Assembly: GCA_027593235.1 (NCBI GenBank) | Contig: JAQCIU010000029.1 | Coordinates: forward strand, 1 to 38,344 | Reading direction: 5' to 3' | Source of the DNA: Chloroflexota bacterium | GTDB lineage: Bacteria > Chloroflexota > Dehalococcoidia > UBA2979 | Length of the DNA: 38,344 nt | Shown here: one piece after another, positions 5,463-12,432 of the stretch | Position numbering within the stretch: the first letter of the stretch is position 1 | Layout: every line of letters begins with the position of its first letter | Made by a program: the position numbers and the translations under genes | The notes under the pieces: generated by a model | What the model saw: only the letters and a program-made list of their open reading frames with translations | The model's database searches: none | Told to the model about the DNA's origin: nothing

Positions 5463-5945
5463 ATGTCAGGGATGACGCAGCTCGATCCGTCCGCGCTTCC
5501 AACCGTCGGCGACATCATGTCGCAGCCCGTCCACACCGTGCGCTCCGACGAAAACCTCGAGGCCGCTCGCAAGGCGCTGGAGCTCTTCCACGTCCACCAC
5601 GTCCTCGTGGAGAACAGCGGTCGCATCGTCGGCATCGTCTCCGACCGCGACATCCTCAGGCACCTCAGCCCCTACGCCGACGGCAAGTCCTCGCAGTCGC
5701 GCGATGAGGCAACCCTCCACCGCCCCGTCTACTCCATCGCCACCTACCAGCTCATCACCGTCGAGACCTCCACCACGCTCGCCGAGGCCACCGCGCTCAT
5801 GCTGGAGCACCGCATCTCCTGCCTCCCGGTCGTCGGTCGCCACGGCAACGTCGTCGGCGTCGTCACCAAAACCAACCTCCTGGAAGCCACGCTCTCCTGC
5901 CTGATCGGCACCCGCTCCGACACCGACCAGCTCCTCGCCGCGTAG
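5463..5945 (+). CDS. CBS-domain pair protein (AcuB-like)
   Basis: VGDIMSQPV, GIVSDRDIL, HRISCLPVV, VGVVTKTNLL; start may be 5472. Confidence 0.85.
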   Translation: MSGMTQLDPSALPTVGDIMSQPVHTVRSDENLEAARKALELFHVHHVLVENSGRIVGIVSDRDILRHLSPYADGKSSQSRDEATLHRPVYSIATYQLITVETSTTLAEATALMLEHRISCLPVVGRHGNVVGVVTKTNLLEATLSCLIGTRSDTDQLLAA

Positions 5946-6191
5946 CGGCATCGCAGCGTCTCGCCGCGTAGCGGCATTCGCCAACACCACGCCGCGTAGC
6001 GGCATCGCAGCGTCTCGCCGCGTAGCGGCATTCGCCAACACCACGCCGCGTAGCGGCATCGCAGCGTCTCGCCGCGTAGCGGCATTCGCCAACACCACGC
6101 CGCGTAGCGGCATCGCAGCGTCTCGCCCCGTAGCGGCATCGCCGGACACCCGCCGCGTAGCGGCATCGCAGCGTCTCGCCGCGTAGCGGCA
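5936..6191. repeat. Tandem array of 10 palindromic CGCCGCGTAGCGGCA cores with two alternating linkers (54-bp higher-order period), REP/BIME-like
   Basis: Cores start at 5936, 5962, 5990, 6016, 6044, 6070, 6098, 6124 (one mismatch), 6151 and 6177. Linkers alternate TCGCAGCGTCT and TTCGCCAACACCA, with one variant. Confidence 0.9.
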
Positions 6192-6336
6192 CCCGCTCAA
6201 CCCGCCGCCCCCACAACCCAGACCACCAACCCCGATAACGAGGTCCGTAACCGTTAACCCCCGAAGGGGGGCGAAGGGGGCGTGTGAGGACGGGCTCCGC
6301 TAGTCTTTCGCAACTGCACTGCGAGGAGACCAGCCC

Positions 6337-7623
6337 GTGCCTGAAGGCCCGCTCGCCGATATCCGTGTCCTTGAGTTCTCGTTGATCGTCGCCATGCCGT
6401 TCAACGGCATCCTCATGTCCGACTTCGGTGCCGACGTCATCAAAGTCGAACCGCTCACCGGCGACCCCTACCGATCCTCCGGCGCCCTCATCCCCGGCGA
6501 GGGCAAACGTTTCCAGTCCCTCAACCGAGGCAAACGCAGCCTTGCCATCGACCTCGCCAACGAGGAGGGCCGCCAGCTCCTGTACCGGATCCTGCCGCGG
6601 TTCGACGTCGTCACCATGAACTACCGGCCTGGCGTCGCAAAACGCCTCGGCATCGACTACGACACGCTCAGCGAGATCCATCCGCCGCTCGTCTACGGCG
6701 ACCTCACCGGCTTTGGCCCGCGCGGTCCGATGGCCGGCTCCGGCGCGACTGACCTCGCTGCCACTGCCTATGCCGGCCTCGTCGCCGGCGACAACAAGGT
6801 CGGCCCCGGAGGCGAGCCCGTCGGGCTCACGCCTGCCATCGCCGACTACGTCACCGGCCTCGCCATCGGCATGGGCGTCGTCGCCGCGCTGCGGCACCGC
6901 GACCAGACCGGCGAGGGCCAACTCGTCGAGGGCTCCCTGCTCCGCTCCGCCCTCGCGATCCAGGACGTCTGGGTCATGCGCCACCCCGTCAACGACGCCA
7001 CGATGCGCGATCCGATGTTCGAGGACATCCAGGCGATGCGCGCCGCCGGCGCCCCCTACGCCGAGCAGCTTGCCCGTCGTCAGGAGTTCCGCGACTCCGG
7101 GGCCGGACCGCCCCGCCTCTACTACCGCTCCTACGTCGCCCACGATGGCGCCATCGTCCTCGGTTGCCTCACCAAGGCCACCCGTGACGGCGCGCGCCGC
7201 GTGCTTGGCATGGAGCATGACCGCAGCGACTCGCCCGACTTCGACGCACGCGACCCCGCCAGCCGCGCCGAGACCAGCGATTGGGTCGCCGAGGTCGAAG
7301 CGAAAGTCCGCCTCGAGCCCGTCGCGCACTGGCTCGCCGCCTTCCGCGATGCCGGTGTCCCCTGCGCGCCAGTCCAGTTCCCCGAGGAGCTGGCCGACGA
7401 CCCGCAGGTCGAAGCGATGGGCCTGATGGCCGACCTCGAGCACGAGCTCACCGGCCCCCAACGCGTCGTCGGCCCGATCGTCGACATGTCGAAGACACCG
7501 ACGGCGGCGCGGCGTGCCTCGCCGATCCTCGGCCGCCACACCACCGAGATCCTCGAGGGCTGCGGGCTCAGCGAAGCGGAGATCGCCGCCTACCGCGCGG
7601 CTGGGGTGATCGGCGGGGAGTAG
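6337..7623 (+). CDS. Family III CoA-transferase (CaiB/BaiF)
   Basis: GPLADIRVLE, DFGADVIKVEP, LNRGKRSLAIDL, IADYVTG (catalytic Asp), PILGRHT; GAGGAG RBS. Confidence 0.9.
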   Translation: MPEGPLADIRVLEFSLIVAMPFNGILMSDFGADVIKVEPLTGDPYRSSGALIPGEGKRFQSLNRGKRSLAIDLANEEGRQLLYRILPRFDVVTMNYRPGVAKRLGIDYDTLSEIHPPLVYGDLTGFGPRGPMAGSGATDLAATAYAGLVAGDNKVGPGGEPVGLTPAIADYVTGLAIGMGVVAALRHRDQTGEGQLVEGSLLRSALAIQDVWVMRHPVNDATMRDPMFEDIQAMRAAGAPYAEQLARRQEFRDSGAGPPRLYYRSYVAHDGAIVLGCLTKATRDGARRVLGMEHDRSDSPDFDARDPASRAETSDWVAEVEAKVRLEPVAHWLAAFRDAGVPCAPVQFPEELADDPQVEAMGLMADLEHELTGPQRVVGPIVDMSKTPTAARRASPILGRHTTEILEGCGLSEAEIAAYRAAGVIGGE

Positions 7624-7647: not shown

Positions 7648-8397
7648 GTGAAGGTCACCGATCGCGCGTCGTCTGAAGTCGAAGGACGTTCAGTGGATCA
7701 GGACCAGCGGCTCTCGCGGAACGGCCGTCGACTCGCCTACGCGCTGGTCGGCGGCACGCTGGTCTACAACGTCTTCGAAGGCGTGATCGCGATCGCCAGC
7801 GGCCTCGCTGCCAGCAGCATCGTCCTGGTGACCTTCGGCATGGACAGCTACCTCGAGGTCATCGCCGCGGCCGCGGTGCTCTGGCGCCTTGCCGCTCCCA
7901 ACGACGAGGTTGGTGAGCGGCGGGAAGAGAAGGCGCTCCGCATCGTCGGCGCCAGTTTCCTGCTACTGGCCGCGGCCGTGGTACTCCAGGCGCTCCTCGC
8001 TCTCGGCGGCGCACGCGGCGCACGCGGCGCGGAGACCTCGACGGTCGGGCTCACGCTGTTGCTGGTCAGTCTGCTGCTGATGCCGGCGATCTCCATCGCC
8101 AAGCTCTGGGCCGCCGCGCGATGGACCGTGCCGTCCCTCGCCGCCGAGGCACGCGAGACCATCGCCTGTTCCTACCTGAGCCTGACGGCTCTCGTCGGCG
8201 TCGTTGCGACCGCCCTGATCGGCTGGTGGTGGCTCGATCCCGCGTTCGCGTTGCTCATGGTCCCCTGGCTCGTCCGCAAGGGACTCGAGGGCATCCGCGG
8301 CGACGCCTGCTTCGACGGCGCGACGCTCTGCTTCTGTCGCGAGTGCTGGTTCGGATCTCGCACCTGCGCCGCGGTCTGCTGCCCGGCTGTCGCCTGA
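7648..8397 (+). CDS. Cation-efflux (CDF-like) membrane protein with Cys-rich tail
   Basis: YNVFEGVIAIASG, FGMDSYLE, AEARETIACSYLS, GWWWLDP; start uncertain (7648 or 7694). Confidence 0.75.
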   Translation: MKVTDRASSEVEGRSVDQDQRLSRNGRRLAYALVGGTLVYNVFEGVIAIASGLAASSIVLVTFGMDSYLEVIAAAAVLWRLAAPNDEVGERREEKALRIVGASFLLLAAAVVLQALLALGGARGARGAETSTVGLTLLLVSLLLMPAISIAKLWAAARWTVPSLAAEARETIACSYLSLTALVGVVATALIGWWWLDPAFALLMVPWLVRKGLEGIRGDACFDGATLCFCRECWFGSRTCAAVCCPAVA

Positions 8398-8425: not shown

Positions 8426-9199
8426 CTAGCCCGCCGCGTACCCGCCGTCGACCGGCAGCACCACGCCCGTGACAAAGTCCGCGGCGTGCGATGCCAGGAA
8501 CACACCCGCGCCCGCAAGTTCGTCCGGCTCGCCGAAGCGACCGGCCGGCGTGCGGTAGATGATCCCCTCGTAGAAGCGCTGGTTGTCTTTCACCGGTGCC
8601 GTCATGTCCGTGGTGATCCACCCCGGCACGATCGCGTTCACCTGGATCCCGTCCACCGCCCAGCCCACCGCCAGCGACTTCGTGAGCTGCACCACCCCGC
8701 CCTTCGAGGACGGATAGGCGATCCCGCGCCCGCTGCCGAACAGCGAGTACTCCGAGGCGATGTTGATCACCTTGCCGCGCCCGCCGGACTTCAGCAGCGG
8801 GTACGCCACCTGCGCCGCCCAGAGCAACGACGACAGGTTCGTATCAATCACCAGCTGCCAGTCCGCCTCGCTGATGCTCTGCGCCTGCCCGCCGCGGGCG
8901 ACGCCCGCGTTGTTGACGAGGATGTCCAACCGCCCGTACTCGGACTCGCAGCGGGCGACCGCGGCCTCCAGGTCGGCGCGCACGTTCACGTCGCAGGTGA
9001 TGCCGGTGGCCGCCCCACCGCGCGACTGGATCGCCGCGACCGCCGCCGCGGTCTTCGCCTCGTTGCGTGCGGCGATCACCACCGAGGCGCCGGCTTCCGC
9101 CAGCCCGTCCGCGATCCCCTGGCCAATGCCGCCGTTGCCACCGGTCACCAGCGCGACGGTGCCACTCAGATCGAACAGCGCGCGCGCAGCCTCATTCAT
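8426..9199 (-). CDS. SDR-family oxidoreductase (KduD-like)
   Basis: TGGNGGIG, NNAG, YPSSK, VDGGY. Confidence 0.9.
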   Translation of the reverse strand: MNEAARALFDLSGTVALVTGGNGGIGQGIADGLAEAGASVVIAARNEAKTAAAVAAIQSRGGAATGITCDVNVRADLEAAVARCESEYGRLDILVNNAGVARGGQAQSISEADWQLVIDTNLSSLLWAAQVAYPLLKSGGRGKVINIASEYSLFGSGRGIAYPSSKGGVVQLTKSLAVGWAVDGIQVNAIVPGWITTDMTAPVKDNQRFYEGIIYRTPAGRFGEPDELAGAGVFLASHAADFVTGVVLPVDGGYAAG

Positions 9200-9241
9200 G
9201 GAGCCGGACTCCCTCGGTTCATCGCCTCAGGAGGCGGATGC

Positions 9242-9766
9242 CTAATCGATCAGCGATCCGAGAATCGAGTCGAAGACGGCTTCGGCCTTCATCCGCATCT
9301 CCGCGTCGGTCGCATCCTGGATTGGATGCTGGACGAAGACGCGCTTCACGTCGGGCAGGCCAAGCGCCTCGGCCTGCGCCGTGGCGGCCTCGACGAATTC
9401 GGTCGACGCCAAGAAGACTGACGGGATGCCCTGGATTTCGAAGGAAACGGTGTCGTGCACACTGCACGTTGTACAAGACCCTCAGTCGGCTAAGGCTTCA
9501 ATCACGAAGCCACATTCCTCCGCGATCTTCCGTCGCAGGTCCTCGGGGGCTGGCTTCGTGAACGTCGGCTTCGCGTAACGCCGCACCTCGACATCCGGCA
9601 GCCGCTCGTGGAACAGCTCCTCGAGGCGATCGAGCAGCACGTTCCCGCGCGGCTTCGAGATATCGAGGAACCCGACGGTCCCCGTGATGTGCTCCGGGCG
9701 CGGGGTCAGCTCACGCTTGACCGGCACCCGCTCGTCGGTCGGATCCAGGATCTGCATTGCAGCCAT
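9242..9766 (-). CDS. UGSC-family selenoprotein, 174 aa, Sec at the TGA 9482-9484
   Basis: Minus strand reads GCC GAC TGA GGG TCT TGT ACA ACG TGC AGT GTG CAC GAC = A-D-U-G-S-C-T-T-C-S-V-H-D. The flanking ORFs are in the same frame with no other stop, and a hairpin follows the TGA. Confidence 0.88.
9449..9481 (-). promoter_or_regulatory. Candidate bacterial SECIS element
   Basis: Directly 3' of the UGA: GGGUCU-UGU-ACAA-CGUGCA-GUG-UGCACG-ACA-CC. Perfect 6-bp upper stem (9454-9468) starts 13 nt after the UGA and has a G-containing loop. Confidence 0.6.
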
Positions 9767-11362
9767 CTAGGCCTCCTCGATCTTGCGACTCACGATCTGG
9801 GAGCCGCGTGGTCCGGTCGCCCAGCCCTGGAAGATCGAGGAAAACTTCCCCGCATCCGAGCCGGCAACAACAATATGAATACTACTGGGGTCCGCGAACT
9901 TCGGGATCCGCCGCTCCAACTGCTCCTCGGTCGGGCCGTCCGCGCCGAACATCGAGGGCGGTATCCCGGCCCCCGACTCCCCGTCCTGCAGCAGCTCGCG
10001 CACCGGCCGCGAGGTCACCTCCTGGATACGCGCGCGCAGCTCGTCCTTCGTCCACCCGTTGGTCTGCAACGTGTCGAGGTGCTCCGGGCACAGCACGAGG
10101 AACGTGTCGGACGCCCCGTGCCCCTTCGGGTGCGCGGTGCTCTCCAGCACCATCCCGATCGACCCGCCGATCTGGCGCGCATCCCTCGAGGTCTGGTCGA
10201 CAATCATCGTCGGCCCGCCCGTCGCCGCGAACAGCGTCACCACGGAATCCTCGGCCTTGAAGCCGTGCTCAACGTGGTACGGCTCCCACGGCGCGCGTTC
10301 CTCCCACTCTGCGAAGCAGAGCGTGTACTTCGACGGGCTGCTCAGCGTGGACCGCTCGGTCCCGCCCGGCCGTCCTCCGCCCACGTTCCGCAACACCAAC
10401 CGGATTGCCCGCCCGATCGCCGCGTTCGCGCGATGCCCCGTCCCCAGCGCGCCAAGCTTGTAGTTCAGCCCGATCTTGTCGCGAATTGGCCCGTTGATCA
10501 GCACCATCGGCGTCGCGCCCATCGTGGTCGCCGAAACGCCGTGGATGTTGAACTCGTCGGTACACATCGCCTCGACGGCGGTGAGCACGACCGGCAGGTA
10601 CTCCGGCTTGCAGCCCGCCATCACCGCGTTGATCGCGATCTTCTCGACAGTCGCCGGCGCCATGTTTGGCGGCACCACCGCCACGATCTCCTGCGAATCG
10701 CGCTTCGTGCCGCCCAGCATCCGCAGCACCCGCTCCGGCGTCGGCGGGATCACCGGTAGGCCATCGGTCAGGCCCTGGTCGTACATGAACTCGTGCACGT
10801 CGTCGTGGTCGCCGATCTCCACGCGCCGTGCGCGCAGCGGGCTGCCCTCGGACTCCGCGACCAGCCGCTCGTGGATGCCCGGCTCCACCGAGCGCGATCC
10901 GCAGCCCGGCCGCGACTCCGGGAACGCGTCCCACGCCACCTCCGGCTCCGCGAGCGCGGTCATCGAGGCCAGCTCGCCCACCACGCCGCGCCAGTCCTCG
11001 CGCCCAAATCCGACGAAGCTCCGCAGCTCCCGCCCGTCCCCGTCCGTCAGAAAGATCGAGGGCACCGTATCCAGCCCGTACGCGAACGACACGCCCAGCG
11101 CGTCGTCGTCCAGCATCGGCAGCGTCAGCCCGTGCTGCTCGATCAGCAGCGCGTTCCCGGGCGTGTCCTGTCCGATCGCCCAGACGTCGGCCGCCCCACC
11201 GAACGCCCGGTGCACCTGCTCGATCAGCGGAATCGAAAGCTGACAGGTCGCGCAATCCTCGTGCACGAAGCACAGCAGCGCCGGCCGCCCCGTCGGGAAC
11301 CGTCGCTCGGTGCCATCGCTATCGGTCAACGAAAACGGTCGCAGCGCGGTCTCGGTTGCCAT
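9767..11362 (-). CDS. Thioredoxin-fold (TlpA/AhpC-like, CATC) domain fused to the domain typically encoded beside UGSC proteins
   Basis: N-terminal FVHEDCATC and YGLDTVPSIFL; linker RPGCGSRS; C-terminal GLTDGLPVIPPTPERV, VEKIAINAVMAGC and RANAAIGRA. Its stop abuts the UGSC start. Confidence 0.75.
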   Translation of the reverse strand: MATETALRPFSLTDSDGTERRFPTGRPALLCFVHEDCATCQLSIPLIEQVHRAFGGAADVWAIGQDTPGNALLIEQHGLTLPMLDDDALGVSFAYGLDTVPSIFLTDGDGRELRSFVGFGREDWRGVVGELASMTALAEPEVAWDAFPESRPGCGSRSVEPGIHERLVAESEGSPLRARRVEIGDHDDVHEFMYDQGLTDGLPVIPPTPERVLRMLGGTKRDSQEIVAVVPPNMAPATVEKIAINAVMAGCKPEYLPVVLTAVEAMCTDEFNIHGVSATTMGATPMVLINGPIRDKIGLNYKLGALGTGHRANAAIGRAIRLVLRNVGGGRPGGTERSTLSSPSKYTLCFAEWEERAPWEPYHVEHGFKAEDSVVTLFAATGGPTMIVDQTSRDARQIGGSIGMVLESTAHPKGHGASDTFLVLCPEHLDTLQTNGWTKDELRARIQEVTSRPVRELLQDGESGAGIPPSMFGADGPTEEQLERRIPKFADPSSIHIVVAGSDAGKFSSIFQGWATGPRGSQIVSRKIEEA

Positions 11363-11515: not shown

Positions 11516-11836
11516 ATGTTCTTCGAGCTACGTCAGTACCTGGTCCGGCCCGGCAAGAAAGACGAATGGGTCCGCATGATGGAAGACGAAATCATCCCCT
11601 TCCAGCAGTCCCAGGGCATGGTCATCGTCGGCAGCTTCACCGGCGAAGAAGACGCCTCCACCTACGTCTGGATCCGCCGCTTCGACTCCGAGGCCGAGCG
11701 CGAGCAGCTCTACGCCAAGGTCTACGAGAGCGACCACTGGAAGAACGACATCGCCCCGAAGATCCCGGATCTGATCGACCGCGCCGGCATGAACATCCAG
11801 CGCATCGAGCCCACCAAGATCTCCGCCCTGCGCTAG
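11516..11836 (+). CDS. NIPSNAP-family protein
   Basis: MFFELRQYLVRPGK...YVWIRRF...VYESDHW; GGAG RBS. Confidence 0.85.
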   Translation: MFFELRQYLVRPGKKDEWVRMMEDEIIPFQQSQGMVIVGSFTGEEDASTYVWIRRFDSEAEREQLYAKVYESDHWKNDIAPKIPDLIDRAGMNIQRIEPTKISALR

Positions 11837-12432
11837 CCGTCCTCGATCCAGCGCCCCGCCGCCACCGCGCGGCGGAGCAGCGGCACCACCTCCGCCTCGA
11901 ACCACGGTCGTTCCTTGAACCACCGCTGGTTCCGAGGCGACGGGTGCGGCATCGGCAAATACGCCGGCACGAACGTCCGCCACGCCTCGACGGTGGCCGA
12001 CACGCTGCCGAGGTACCCGTCGCCCAGCACCCGCTGCTGCGCGTACGCACCCACCAGTAGCGTCAGCCGCTCCGTCGGGAGCTGCGCGAACACCTCGTCG
12101 TGCCAGAGCGGCGCGCACTCCGGCCGCGGCGGCAGGTCGCCGGACTTCCCAGTCCCCGGGTAACAGAACTCCGTCGGCACAATCGCCACGCGCGACGCGT
12201 CGTAGAAGGCGTCGCGATCGAGGCCCAGCCACCCGCGCAGCCGTTCGCCGCTCGGATCGTCGAACGGCACCCCGGACTCGTGCACCCGCCGCCCCGGCGC
12301 CTGCCCCACGATCACCACCCGCGATGTCGCGCTGAACTGCACCACCGGGCGCGGCCCGAACGGCAGCTGCTCCGCGCAAAACGTGCACGCCGCGATGCGC
12401 GTCCGCAGCGACTCAACCTCGGTACTTCCCAT
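11833..12432 (-). CDS. Uracil-DNA glycosylase-like family protein
   Basis: GQAPG, FDDPSGERLRGWLG, FCYPGTGKSGDLPPRPEC, PHPSPRN. Confidence 0.88.
   Translation of the reverse strand: MGSTEVESLRTRIAACTFCAEQLPFGPRPVVQFSATSRVVIVGQAPGRRVHESGVPFDDPSGERLRGWLGLDRDAFYDASRVAIVPTEFCYPGTGKSGDLPPRPECAPLWHDEVFAQLPTERLTLLVGAYAQQRVLGDGYLGSVSATVEAWRTFVPAYLPMPHPSPRNQRWFKERPWFEAEVVPLLRRAVAAGRWIEDG

Follow-up and report, generated by a model that had tools for sequence, protein, structure and literature searches.

The locus studied here raises the question of whether two short open reading frames on the minus strand are separate genes or the two halves of one selenoprotein gene. The window, that is, the whole stretch of 38,344 nucleotides from a Chloroflexota bacterium, has a G+C content of 68.8%. 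Under translation table 11, its ORF list contains a frame of 94 aa at 9482..9766 and a frame of 72 aa with a GTG start at 9242..9460, both on the minus strand. An earlier note on this DNA had proposed that the two are one reading frame, broken only by the TGA at 9482–9484. Translation of the minus strand from 9766 to 9242 confirmed this view. The frame begins with an ATG at 9766 (alternative ATG at 9757), ends with a TAG at 9244–9242, and contains a single in-frame TGA, which is codon 95 (9484–9482). The joined protein has the sequence IEALAD-U-GSCTTCSVHD that the earlier note had given. Around the selenocysteine (Sec) position it reads ...ECGFVIEALAD-U-GSCTTCSVHDTVSFEIQGIPSV..., the same site also being given as ...FVIEALAD-U-GSCTTCSVHDTVS.... 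For the reasons developed below, we consider it very probable that positions 9766–9242 of the minus strand form a single gene encoding a 174-residue UGSC selenoprotein, in which UGA is read as Sec under the direction of a SECIS element. The features of this gene are as follows.

9242..9766, minus strand: UGSC-family selenoprotein gene, 174 codons plus TAG stop
9482..9484, minus strand: predicted Sec codon 95, an in-frame UGA that opens the U-G-S-C motif
9454..9468, minus strand: SECIS hairpin with a 6-bp stem (CGUGCA/UGCACG) and the loop GUG, supported by comparison of relatives

The joined protein was recognized by two curated family models. NCBIfam NF041046, "UGSC family (seleno)protein", matched with 163.2 bits (cut-off 125) over profile positions 4–145 of 147, and Pfam PF24696, "UGSC", matched with 161.7 bits (cut-off 25) over positions 1–170 of 172. 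The latter was the only Pfam family matched by the protein. Since both models match the two halves in one frame, the two short ORFs are to be regarded as one gene, and its membership in the UGSC family, likewise claimed in the earlier note, is almost certain as judged from these profile matches. The closest UGSC sequence in an alignment of 27 sequences is 91% identical over the whole length. The gene is a plain, routine member of a described family, from which it differs in nothing essential. It had been announced as a "hidden" selenoprotein, a label that does not apply, because the family already has NCBIfam and Pfam models and the gene is thus known in kind.

UGSC-containing proteins have been in print since 2007/2008 (Zhang and Gladyshev; PMC1976440, PMC2398784). 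The 2007 paper names Hyphomonas neptunium as a carrier (PMC1976440). Table 2 of the 2008 GOS survey counts 255 sequences with Sec and 21 with Cys for the motif UxxC, and the survey ranks the family among the most abundant selenoprotein families of the GOS samples and notes a fusion of UGSC to a domain named "Unknown_1" (PMC2398784). The family is still included in a 2022 review (PMC9312934), and a 2026 review names it among the selenoproteins whose functions are largely uncharacterized (PMC13188914). A full-text literature search under the names UGSC family, PF24696, and NF041046 returned nothing beyond the 2026 review.

The first alternative to be weighed takes the TGA as an ordinary stop codon, so that the locus would encode a 94-aa protein and a separate 72-aa protein starting at GTG 9460. 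Table 11 indeed gives exactly two ORFs, and the protein databases appear to agree. Among 757 candidates, the protein database search yielded 443 matches with E ≤ 0.001. Only six of the 120 matches listed cover more than 90% of the query, and the remainder are mostly N-terminal pieces of 95–110 aa. These pieces indicate that gene callers stop at the TGA, which is in line with the claim of the earlier note that annotation splits this gene. The six full-length matches carry Cys (P0007, P0008), Trp (P0004), Gly (P0003), or Arg (P0005) at the Sec column, the sixth (P0050) having a garbled row at this position. The Trp and Gly residues probably stem from gene calling with other genetic codes.

The genomes themselves argue against an ordinary stop. 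We searched 61 genomes, comprising this genome and 60 relatives, with the NF041046 profile, which matched in 28 and exceeded its cut-off in 25 of them, with up to 12 match rows per genome among the relatives. Exactly one TGA was found in 76 of the 78 match rows, the other two being weak matches with 55.9 and 22.5 bits. All 57 UGSC genes extracted from 70 loci have TGA at the Sec column; the filter used for this extraction allowed U or C at the motif, and 14 loci that failed the strict filter were left out. A further set of 80 loci was picked via the protein encoded directly upstream, referred to as the partner, and hence independently of the TGA. A UGSC HMM match was present on the same strand in 70 of them, and the Sec column of these 70 best matches is TGA in 69 cases and TGC in one (L161). 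TGA or Cys at the column in question, which the earlier note had suggested looking for, was thus found in the three sets of genomic matches and, as Cys, in P0007 and P0008; the Cys replacements in these two proteins speak against termination at this codon. The sequence following the TGA is, moreover, the most conserved part of the protein, with G96, S97, and C98 invariant. The family HMMs run through both halves in one frame, the joined chain was modelled by AlphaFold2 as one domain with a pLDDT of 93.9, and the genome encodes the machinery for Sec insertion described below. Taken together, these observations make an ordinary stop very improbable, and we retain the single selenoprotein gene.

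The genome to which the window belongs is a 3.39 Mb draft in 78 contigs with a completeness of 89.7%. Its search with the respective profiles revealed selA (544.2 bits, cut-off 268), selB (299.7 bits, cut-off 242), selD (359.3 bits, cut-off 125), and tRNA-Sec (72.7 bits, cut-off 47), the last of which was identified by ARAGORN as tRNA-SeC with the anticodon TCA. The presence of SelA/B/C/D, which the earlier note had only postulated, is therefore borne out by matches that all lie above the cut-offs. Within the selD gene (locus L011, G000:C16:112734-113672) there is exactly one in-frame TGA, which gives the translation ...LASCAG-U-AGKMG..., and SelD of this organism thus appears, from its sequence, to be a selenoprotein itself. 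As such, the TGA within selD would be independent evidence of active Sec decoding. The selA and selB matches contain no in-frame stop. We infer that codon 95 is decoded as Sec by this SelA/SelB/SelD/tRNA-Sec system.

A second alternative would have one of the standard amino acids, namely Trp, Gly, or Cys, inserted at the TGA, by a reassigned code or by near-cognate read-through. The Trp in P0004 and the Gly in P0003 at the Sec column would fit this reading, and presumably reflect calls under other codes. Against it stand the reading frames of the same genome: selA, selB, and the partner gene are free of in-frame stops, and selD has just the one in SCAG-U-AGK. Furthermore, 9 of 24 UGSC genes of relatives terminate at TGA, so this codon is still a terminator in this class. 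The conserved hairpin with its invariant G-U loop, described in the next paragraph, is a requirement of SelB-dependent decoding. A standard amino acid at codon 95 is accordingly hardly credible, and Sec remains the preferred assignment. That the gene is a decaying pseudogene, or its TGA an assembly or sequencing error, has a practically negligible probability despite the draft state of the genome (78 contigs, 89.7% complete), since dozens of genomes and paralogues independently have this TGA and conservation is strong on both sides of it, the nearest relative being 91% identical over the whole length.

The earlier note had also pointed to the hairpin CGUGCA-GUG-UGCACG as a SECIS-like element. 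On the minus strand, CGUGCA occupies positions 9468–9463, the loop GUG 9462–9460, and UGCACG 9459–9454, and the hairpin is separated from the UGA by a spacer of 13 nt (9481–9469). It lies within the codons T100-C101-S102-V103-H104. We compared 53 distinct 60-nt stretches from relatives in a gapless alignment. Of the 318 cells that the 6-bp helix has in this alignment, 99.1% are paired, and in 28 cells, which belong to three of the six pairs, both bases have changed. These compensatory changes convert U-A to G-C or G-U, G-C to C-G, and, in 19 sequences, C-G to G-C. The covariation score of 0.260 compares with 0.047 in shuffles and was reached in none of 500 shuffles; when the partner columns were slid, it did not exceed 0.055. 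RNAalifold predicted the same hairpin without guidance. Where C-G is swapped to G-C, a non-synonymous change from Cys (UGC) to Trp (UGG) goes together with a synonymous change of Val from GUG to GUC, a combination that cannot be explained by selection at the protein level. In the loop, neither the G of column 29 nor the U of column 30 varies among the 53 sequences. We conclude from the pairing across the 53 relatives and the compensatory changes in three of six pairs that the hairpin is, on this comparative evidence, a real SECIS element. When the 71 nt following the UGA were folded alone, their energy was no better than that of shuffles (z = −0.14); the support for the hairpin is thus comparative and not energetic. 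An Rfam scan of positions 9200–9800 at E ≤ 10 gave miRNA and sRNA matches at chance level only and no matching family.

Two further claims about this RNA region held only in part. The stem had been regarded as extendable by UGU/ACA, and UGU (9475–9473) and ACA (9453–9451) are indeed present on either side of it on the minus strand. As a conserved stem, however, the extension had to be rejected: it is paired in just 68.6% of the cells without any compensatory change, and the extension pair 18–38 is formed in 11 of the 53 sequences. The codons with A or T in the third position, unusual for a gene with a GC3 of 0.82, had been taken as a sign of an RNA-level constraint. They make up 8 of 14 codons in the stretch 89–102, compared with 32 of 174 across the gene, and a scan-window permutation gave only a marginal p value of 0.045 for this cluster. 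The rare Ser codon AGU is retained in 52 of the 53 sequences. TCT, TGT, and ACA are not retained across the relatives, in which TCC, TGC, and ACG are common. Judged from these sequences, AGU is the only constrained codon among the A/T-ending ones near the UGA.

The proposed redox motif U-G-S-C-T-T-C likewise needs to be shortened. In the 27 aligned sequences, G96, S97, C98, S102, E110, F124, G136, H147, and P148 are invariant, and U95 is almost invariant. At the position of C101, the third cysteine of the motif, which is encoded within the hairpin, these sequences have C, W, or A, and further paralogues have G. The U-G-S-C part of the claim therefore stands, and because C101 is replaced in relatives, the redox motif is, as far as the alignment goes, U-x-x-C rather than U-G-S-C-T-T-C.

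AlphaFold2, run on the 27-sequence alignment, returned a model with a pLDDT of 93.9 and a pTM of 0.87. It consists of five strand-helix repeats, and U95 opens the helix 96–111 right after the strand 87–93. A Foldseek search against the PDB gave SsuE, AzoR, and flavodoxin as the best matches (TM 0.45–0.53, E ~1e-5 to 1e-4), which are generic fold matches. The fold of UGSC is thus predicted to be a flavodoxin-like α/β domain. In the model, Sec95 and Cys98 would be located at the N-terminal end of helix 96–111, the usual place of a redox-active pair. The 2008 GOS survey proposed a thioredoxin-like fold for UGSC (PMC2398784); we rejected this assignment, as the AlphaFold2 model is flavodoxin-like and no thioredoxin occurs among the Foldseek matches listed. 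Searches of the PDB sequences with the UGSC protein, as a single sequence or as a profile, gave nothing significant, and the ESM Atlas contributed only unnamed clusters and UGSC-carrying fusions.

Directly upstream of the UGSC gene lies the partner gene, which comprises the following features.

9767..11362, minus strand: partner gene, 531 aa, with the start fixed by database homologues of ~531 aa
11003..11335, minus strand: thioredoxin-like domain of the partner (AhpC/TSA, ResA/TlpA-like), PF00578 with 27.3 bits
9770..10813, minus strand: C-terminal domain of the partner, ~350 aa, with no Pfam or NCBIfam match

The TAG of the partner gene abuts the ATG of the UGSC gene, and a GAGGAGG sequence is situated 7 nt upstream of that ATG. 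This arrangement suggests that the two genes are translationally coupled. The 531-aa frame of the partner contains no in-frame TGA. On the other side, a gene for an SDR-family oxidoreductase (KduD/FabG-like; 8426–9199, minus strand) begins 42 nt downstream of the UGSC stop. It has a tblastn match in 7 of 29 loci of relatives, with clear similarity in only four, and because of this restricted occurrence we treat it as what is probably a local neighbor outside the UGSC module. No Pfam family was found for the ORFs 11528–12388, 7648–8397, and 5863–7539 of the window.

The N-terminal domain of the partner carries a C-A-T-C motif (11243–11254, minus strand). It matches ResA in the PDB (4nmu; E 5.2e-5), and Foldseek also returned ResA and TlpA. 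In the partner alignment (A5), C38 does not vary and C41 hardly varies. The database names of the family, such as "redoxin domain-containing" and "TlpA family", reflect this N-terminal domain only. The linker between the thioredoxin-like and the C-terminal domain (residues 150–160 of P0002) contains a P-G-C-G-S motif that is invariant in the 25 full-length homologues and provides a further conserved cysteine, C155. For the remainder of the protein, residues 185–532, searches of Pfam, NCBIfam, and the PDB sequences gave no match, even with the threshold relaxed to E 1–10, and Foldseek with the full partner model gave thioredoxin-domain matches only, among the matches listed. The C-terminal domain was modelled by AlphaFold2 with a pLDDT of ~90, and it harbors a nearly invariant cysteine (C252 of P0002) in the motif AVMAGC. 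The partner family comprises at least 7975 database clusters. The best database match of the partner is 93% identical, its nearest relatives belong to Dehalococcoidia/Chloroflexota MAGs, and more distant ones to MAGs of Pseudomonadales, Henriciella, Acidimicrobiia, and Burkholderiales.

The association of the two genes is nearly constant. Of 29 loci, 28 have the partner domain next to UGSC, as do 37 of 40 paralogue loci, the three exceptions among the latter being L052, L073 (at a contig end), and L088; the converse count is the 70 of 80 partner-selected loci given above. In L081, L082, and L085, the partner domain follows UGSC on the same strand within an open frame of 580–730 codons. Judging by the length and continuity of such frames, UGSC and the partner domain are likely fused in these three loci and in beta-proteobacterial ones. 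The latter (L164–L181, from Burkholderiales and other beta-proteobacterial MAGs) have long frames with 455–468 codons after the Sec codon. Their Sec motif is G-G-U-G-T-C-T-P, and the sequence following their UGA, CCGGCCUC-GGUG-AGGCCGG, resembles, as judged by eye, another GC-rich hairpin, located about as far from the UGA as the one described here but different from it. In L041 (G058:C9), L059, L061, L063, L068, L069, and L072, a single UGSC gene is accompanied by two copies of the partner domain, which in L041 are located on both sides of UGSC. From gene linkage and the apparent fusions, the two proteins are candidates for a physical association. We further infer that the "Unknown_1" domain of the fusion noted in the 2008 survey (PMC2398784) corresponds to the partner domain. 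An hhalign comparison of UGSC with the partner gave 0.2%.

A possible relative of UGSC is the selenoprotein B found in D-proline reductase (PrdB) and in the glycine, sarcosine, and betaine reductases (GrdB). The UGSC protein has no match to Pfam PF07355 (GRDB), and this genome contains none at all; the model matched in 23 of the 61 genomes searched, this genome not among them. In all nine loci examined, the GRDB match ends exactly at a TGA. As the model stops just before Sec, it cannot detect the segment that GrdB would share with UGSC. Five full-length GrdB-like genes contain, past the GRDB match, the pattern ...VILTST-U-GT.TR.GA...E..G(I/L)P...PHP(L/V)G. The PF07355 model thus seems to stop at the Sec residue and to miss a conserved C-terminal segment. 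In L092–L096 (G060, G057, G056, G055, and G041), which are relatives from the same class, full-length genes of the GRDB family were observed to run ~80–90 codons past the TGA at the model end. An hhalign comparison of UGSC with the GrdB-like C-terminal segments gave a probability of 88.8% with E 2.5e-6 over 86 columns, based on thin alignments (Neff ~2–3, five GrdB-like rows). It places Sec on Sec, brings the E..GIP and HP motifs into register, and spans UGSC residues 83–174 only. On these alignments, a distant relationship between the Sec half of UGSC and the Sec segment of GrdB/PrdB is plausible.

The GRDB matches also include a candidate third family in L098–L101 (G039, G053, G018, and G002). 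Its members cover about GRDB positions 184–345 only, in read-through frames of ~230 aa, and have a TGA at the model end followed by x-x-C (USGC, UPLC, UWLC, and UPAC). L098–L100 share the further motifs RSVG...IE..G and FP.G.P(L/I)G, and L101 is more diverged. As a relative of UGSC, this small U-x-x-C family was discarded, the hhalign value of 4.1% giving no clear relation. The partner was likewise discarded as a relative of GrdB (hhalign of partner versus GRDB, 0.45%).

Selenoprotein B of the D-proline and glycine reductases provides the chemistry on which we modelled a mechanism for UGSC and its partner, an analogy drawn from the distant relation of the C-terminal half of UGSC. Codon 95 would be decoded as Sec in a SelB-dependent manner, directed by the coding-region hairpin 13 nt downstream. 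UGSC would then provide the selenol/thiol subunit of a reductase with two components, and the protein encoded upstream would be its counterpart. The ~350-aa domain of the partner would bind the substrate, and the U95/C98 pair would cycle between the selenol/thiol and the selenenylsulfide form during substrate turnover. The thioredoxin-like CxxC of the partner N-terminus could re-reduce the U95–C98 selenenylsulfide. Being built by analogy, this two-component mechanism could, in our estimation, equally well hold or fail. In a wider and more tentative reading, to which we lean somewhat less than we lean away from it, UGSC and the partner domain would represent a widespread, thioredoxin-recycled, selenium-dependent reductase that is an offshoot of GrdB/PrdB, with the partner domain as a new family of substrate-binding enzymes. 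The hosts of such a reductase may be Dehalococcoidia-like and other mostly uncultured bacteria represented by MAGs.

For the window, the analysis mainly corrects an annotation, in that a single selenoprotein gene takes the place of two short hypothetical ORFs. The family as a whole is of greater importance than this gene: UGSC, its near-constant partner, and the possible link to GrdB/PrdB together make up a concrete two-protein system that can be expressed and assayed, and the function of the UGSC–partner pair is a worthwhile experimental target.

Compared with known systems, the gene resembles the other members of the UGSC family in its length (~175 aa), its U-G-S-C motif, and its passing of both curated cut-offs. 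The family occurs mostly in the Sec form, and Cys forms are rare in the 2008 survey counts (PMC2398784). Its hairpin shares several traits with coding-region SECIS elements of the fdhF type: it lies within the reading frame, close to the UGA on its 3′ side and at a constant spacing, G and U are conserved in the apical loop, and the encoded amino acids are constrained. The E. coli fdhF element has a bulged U in addition to the conserved G and U of its apical loop. The hairpin described here differs from that type by its 13-nt spacer, six conserved base pairs, and 3-nt loop, with no bulged U evident, and it is not a copy of the E. coli element.

UGSC also differs from GrdB/PrdB. The N-terminal part of GrdB, ~200 residues, is absent from UGSC. 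The partner of UGSC is unrelated to GrdB, with no Pfam family at E ≤ 10 for its C-terminal domain, and PrdA/GrdE employ pyruvoyl chemistry. The hosts differ as well, UGSC being found here in Dehalococcoidia-like MAGs and GrdB/PrdB in amino-acid-fermenting clostridia. In each of the two systems, a second protein takes part or is proposed to take part. UGSC and GrdB/PrdB also have in common a Sec residue that directly follows a β-strand and has the sequence context U-G-(S/T)-x-T, with the further motifs E..G(I/L)P.V and (I/V)PHP(I/L)(G/Q) in a similar register.
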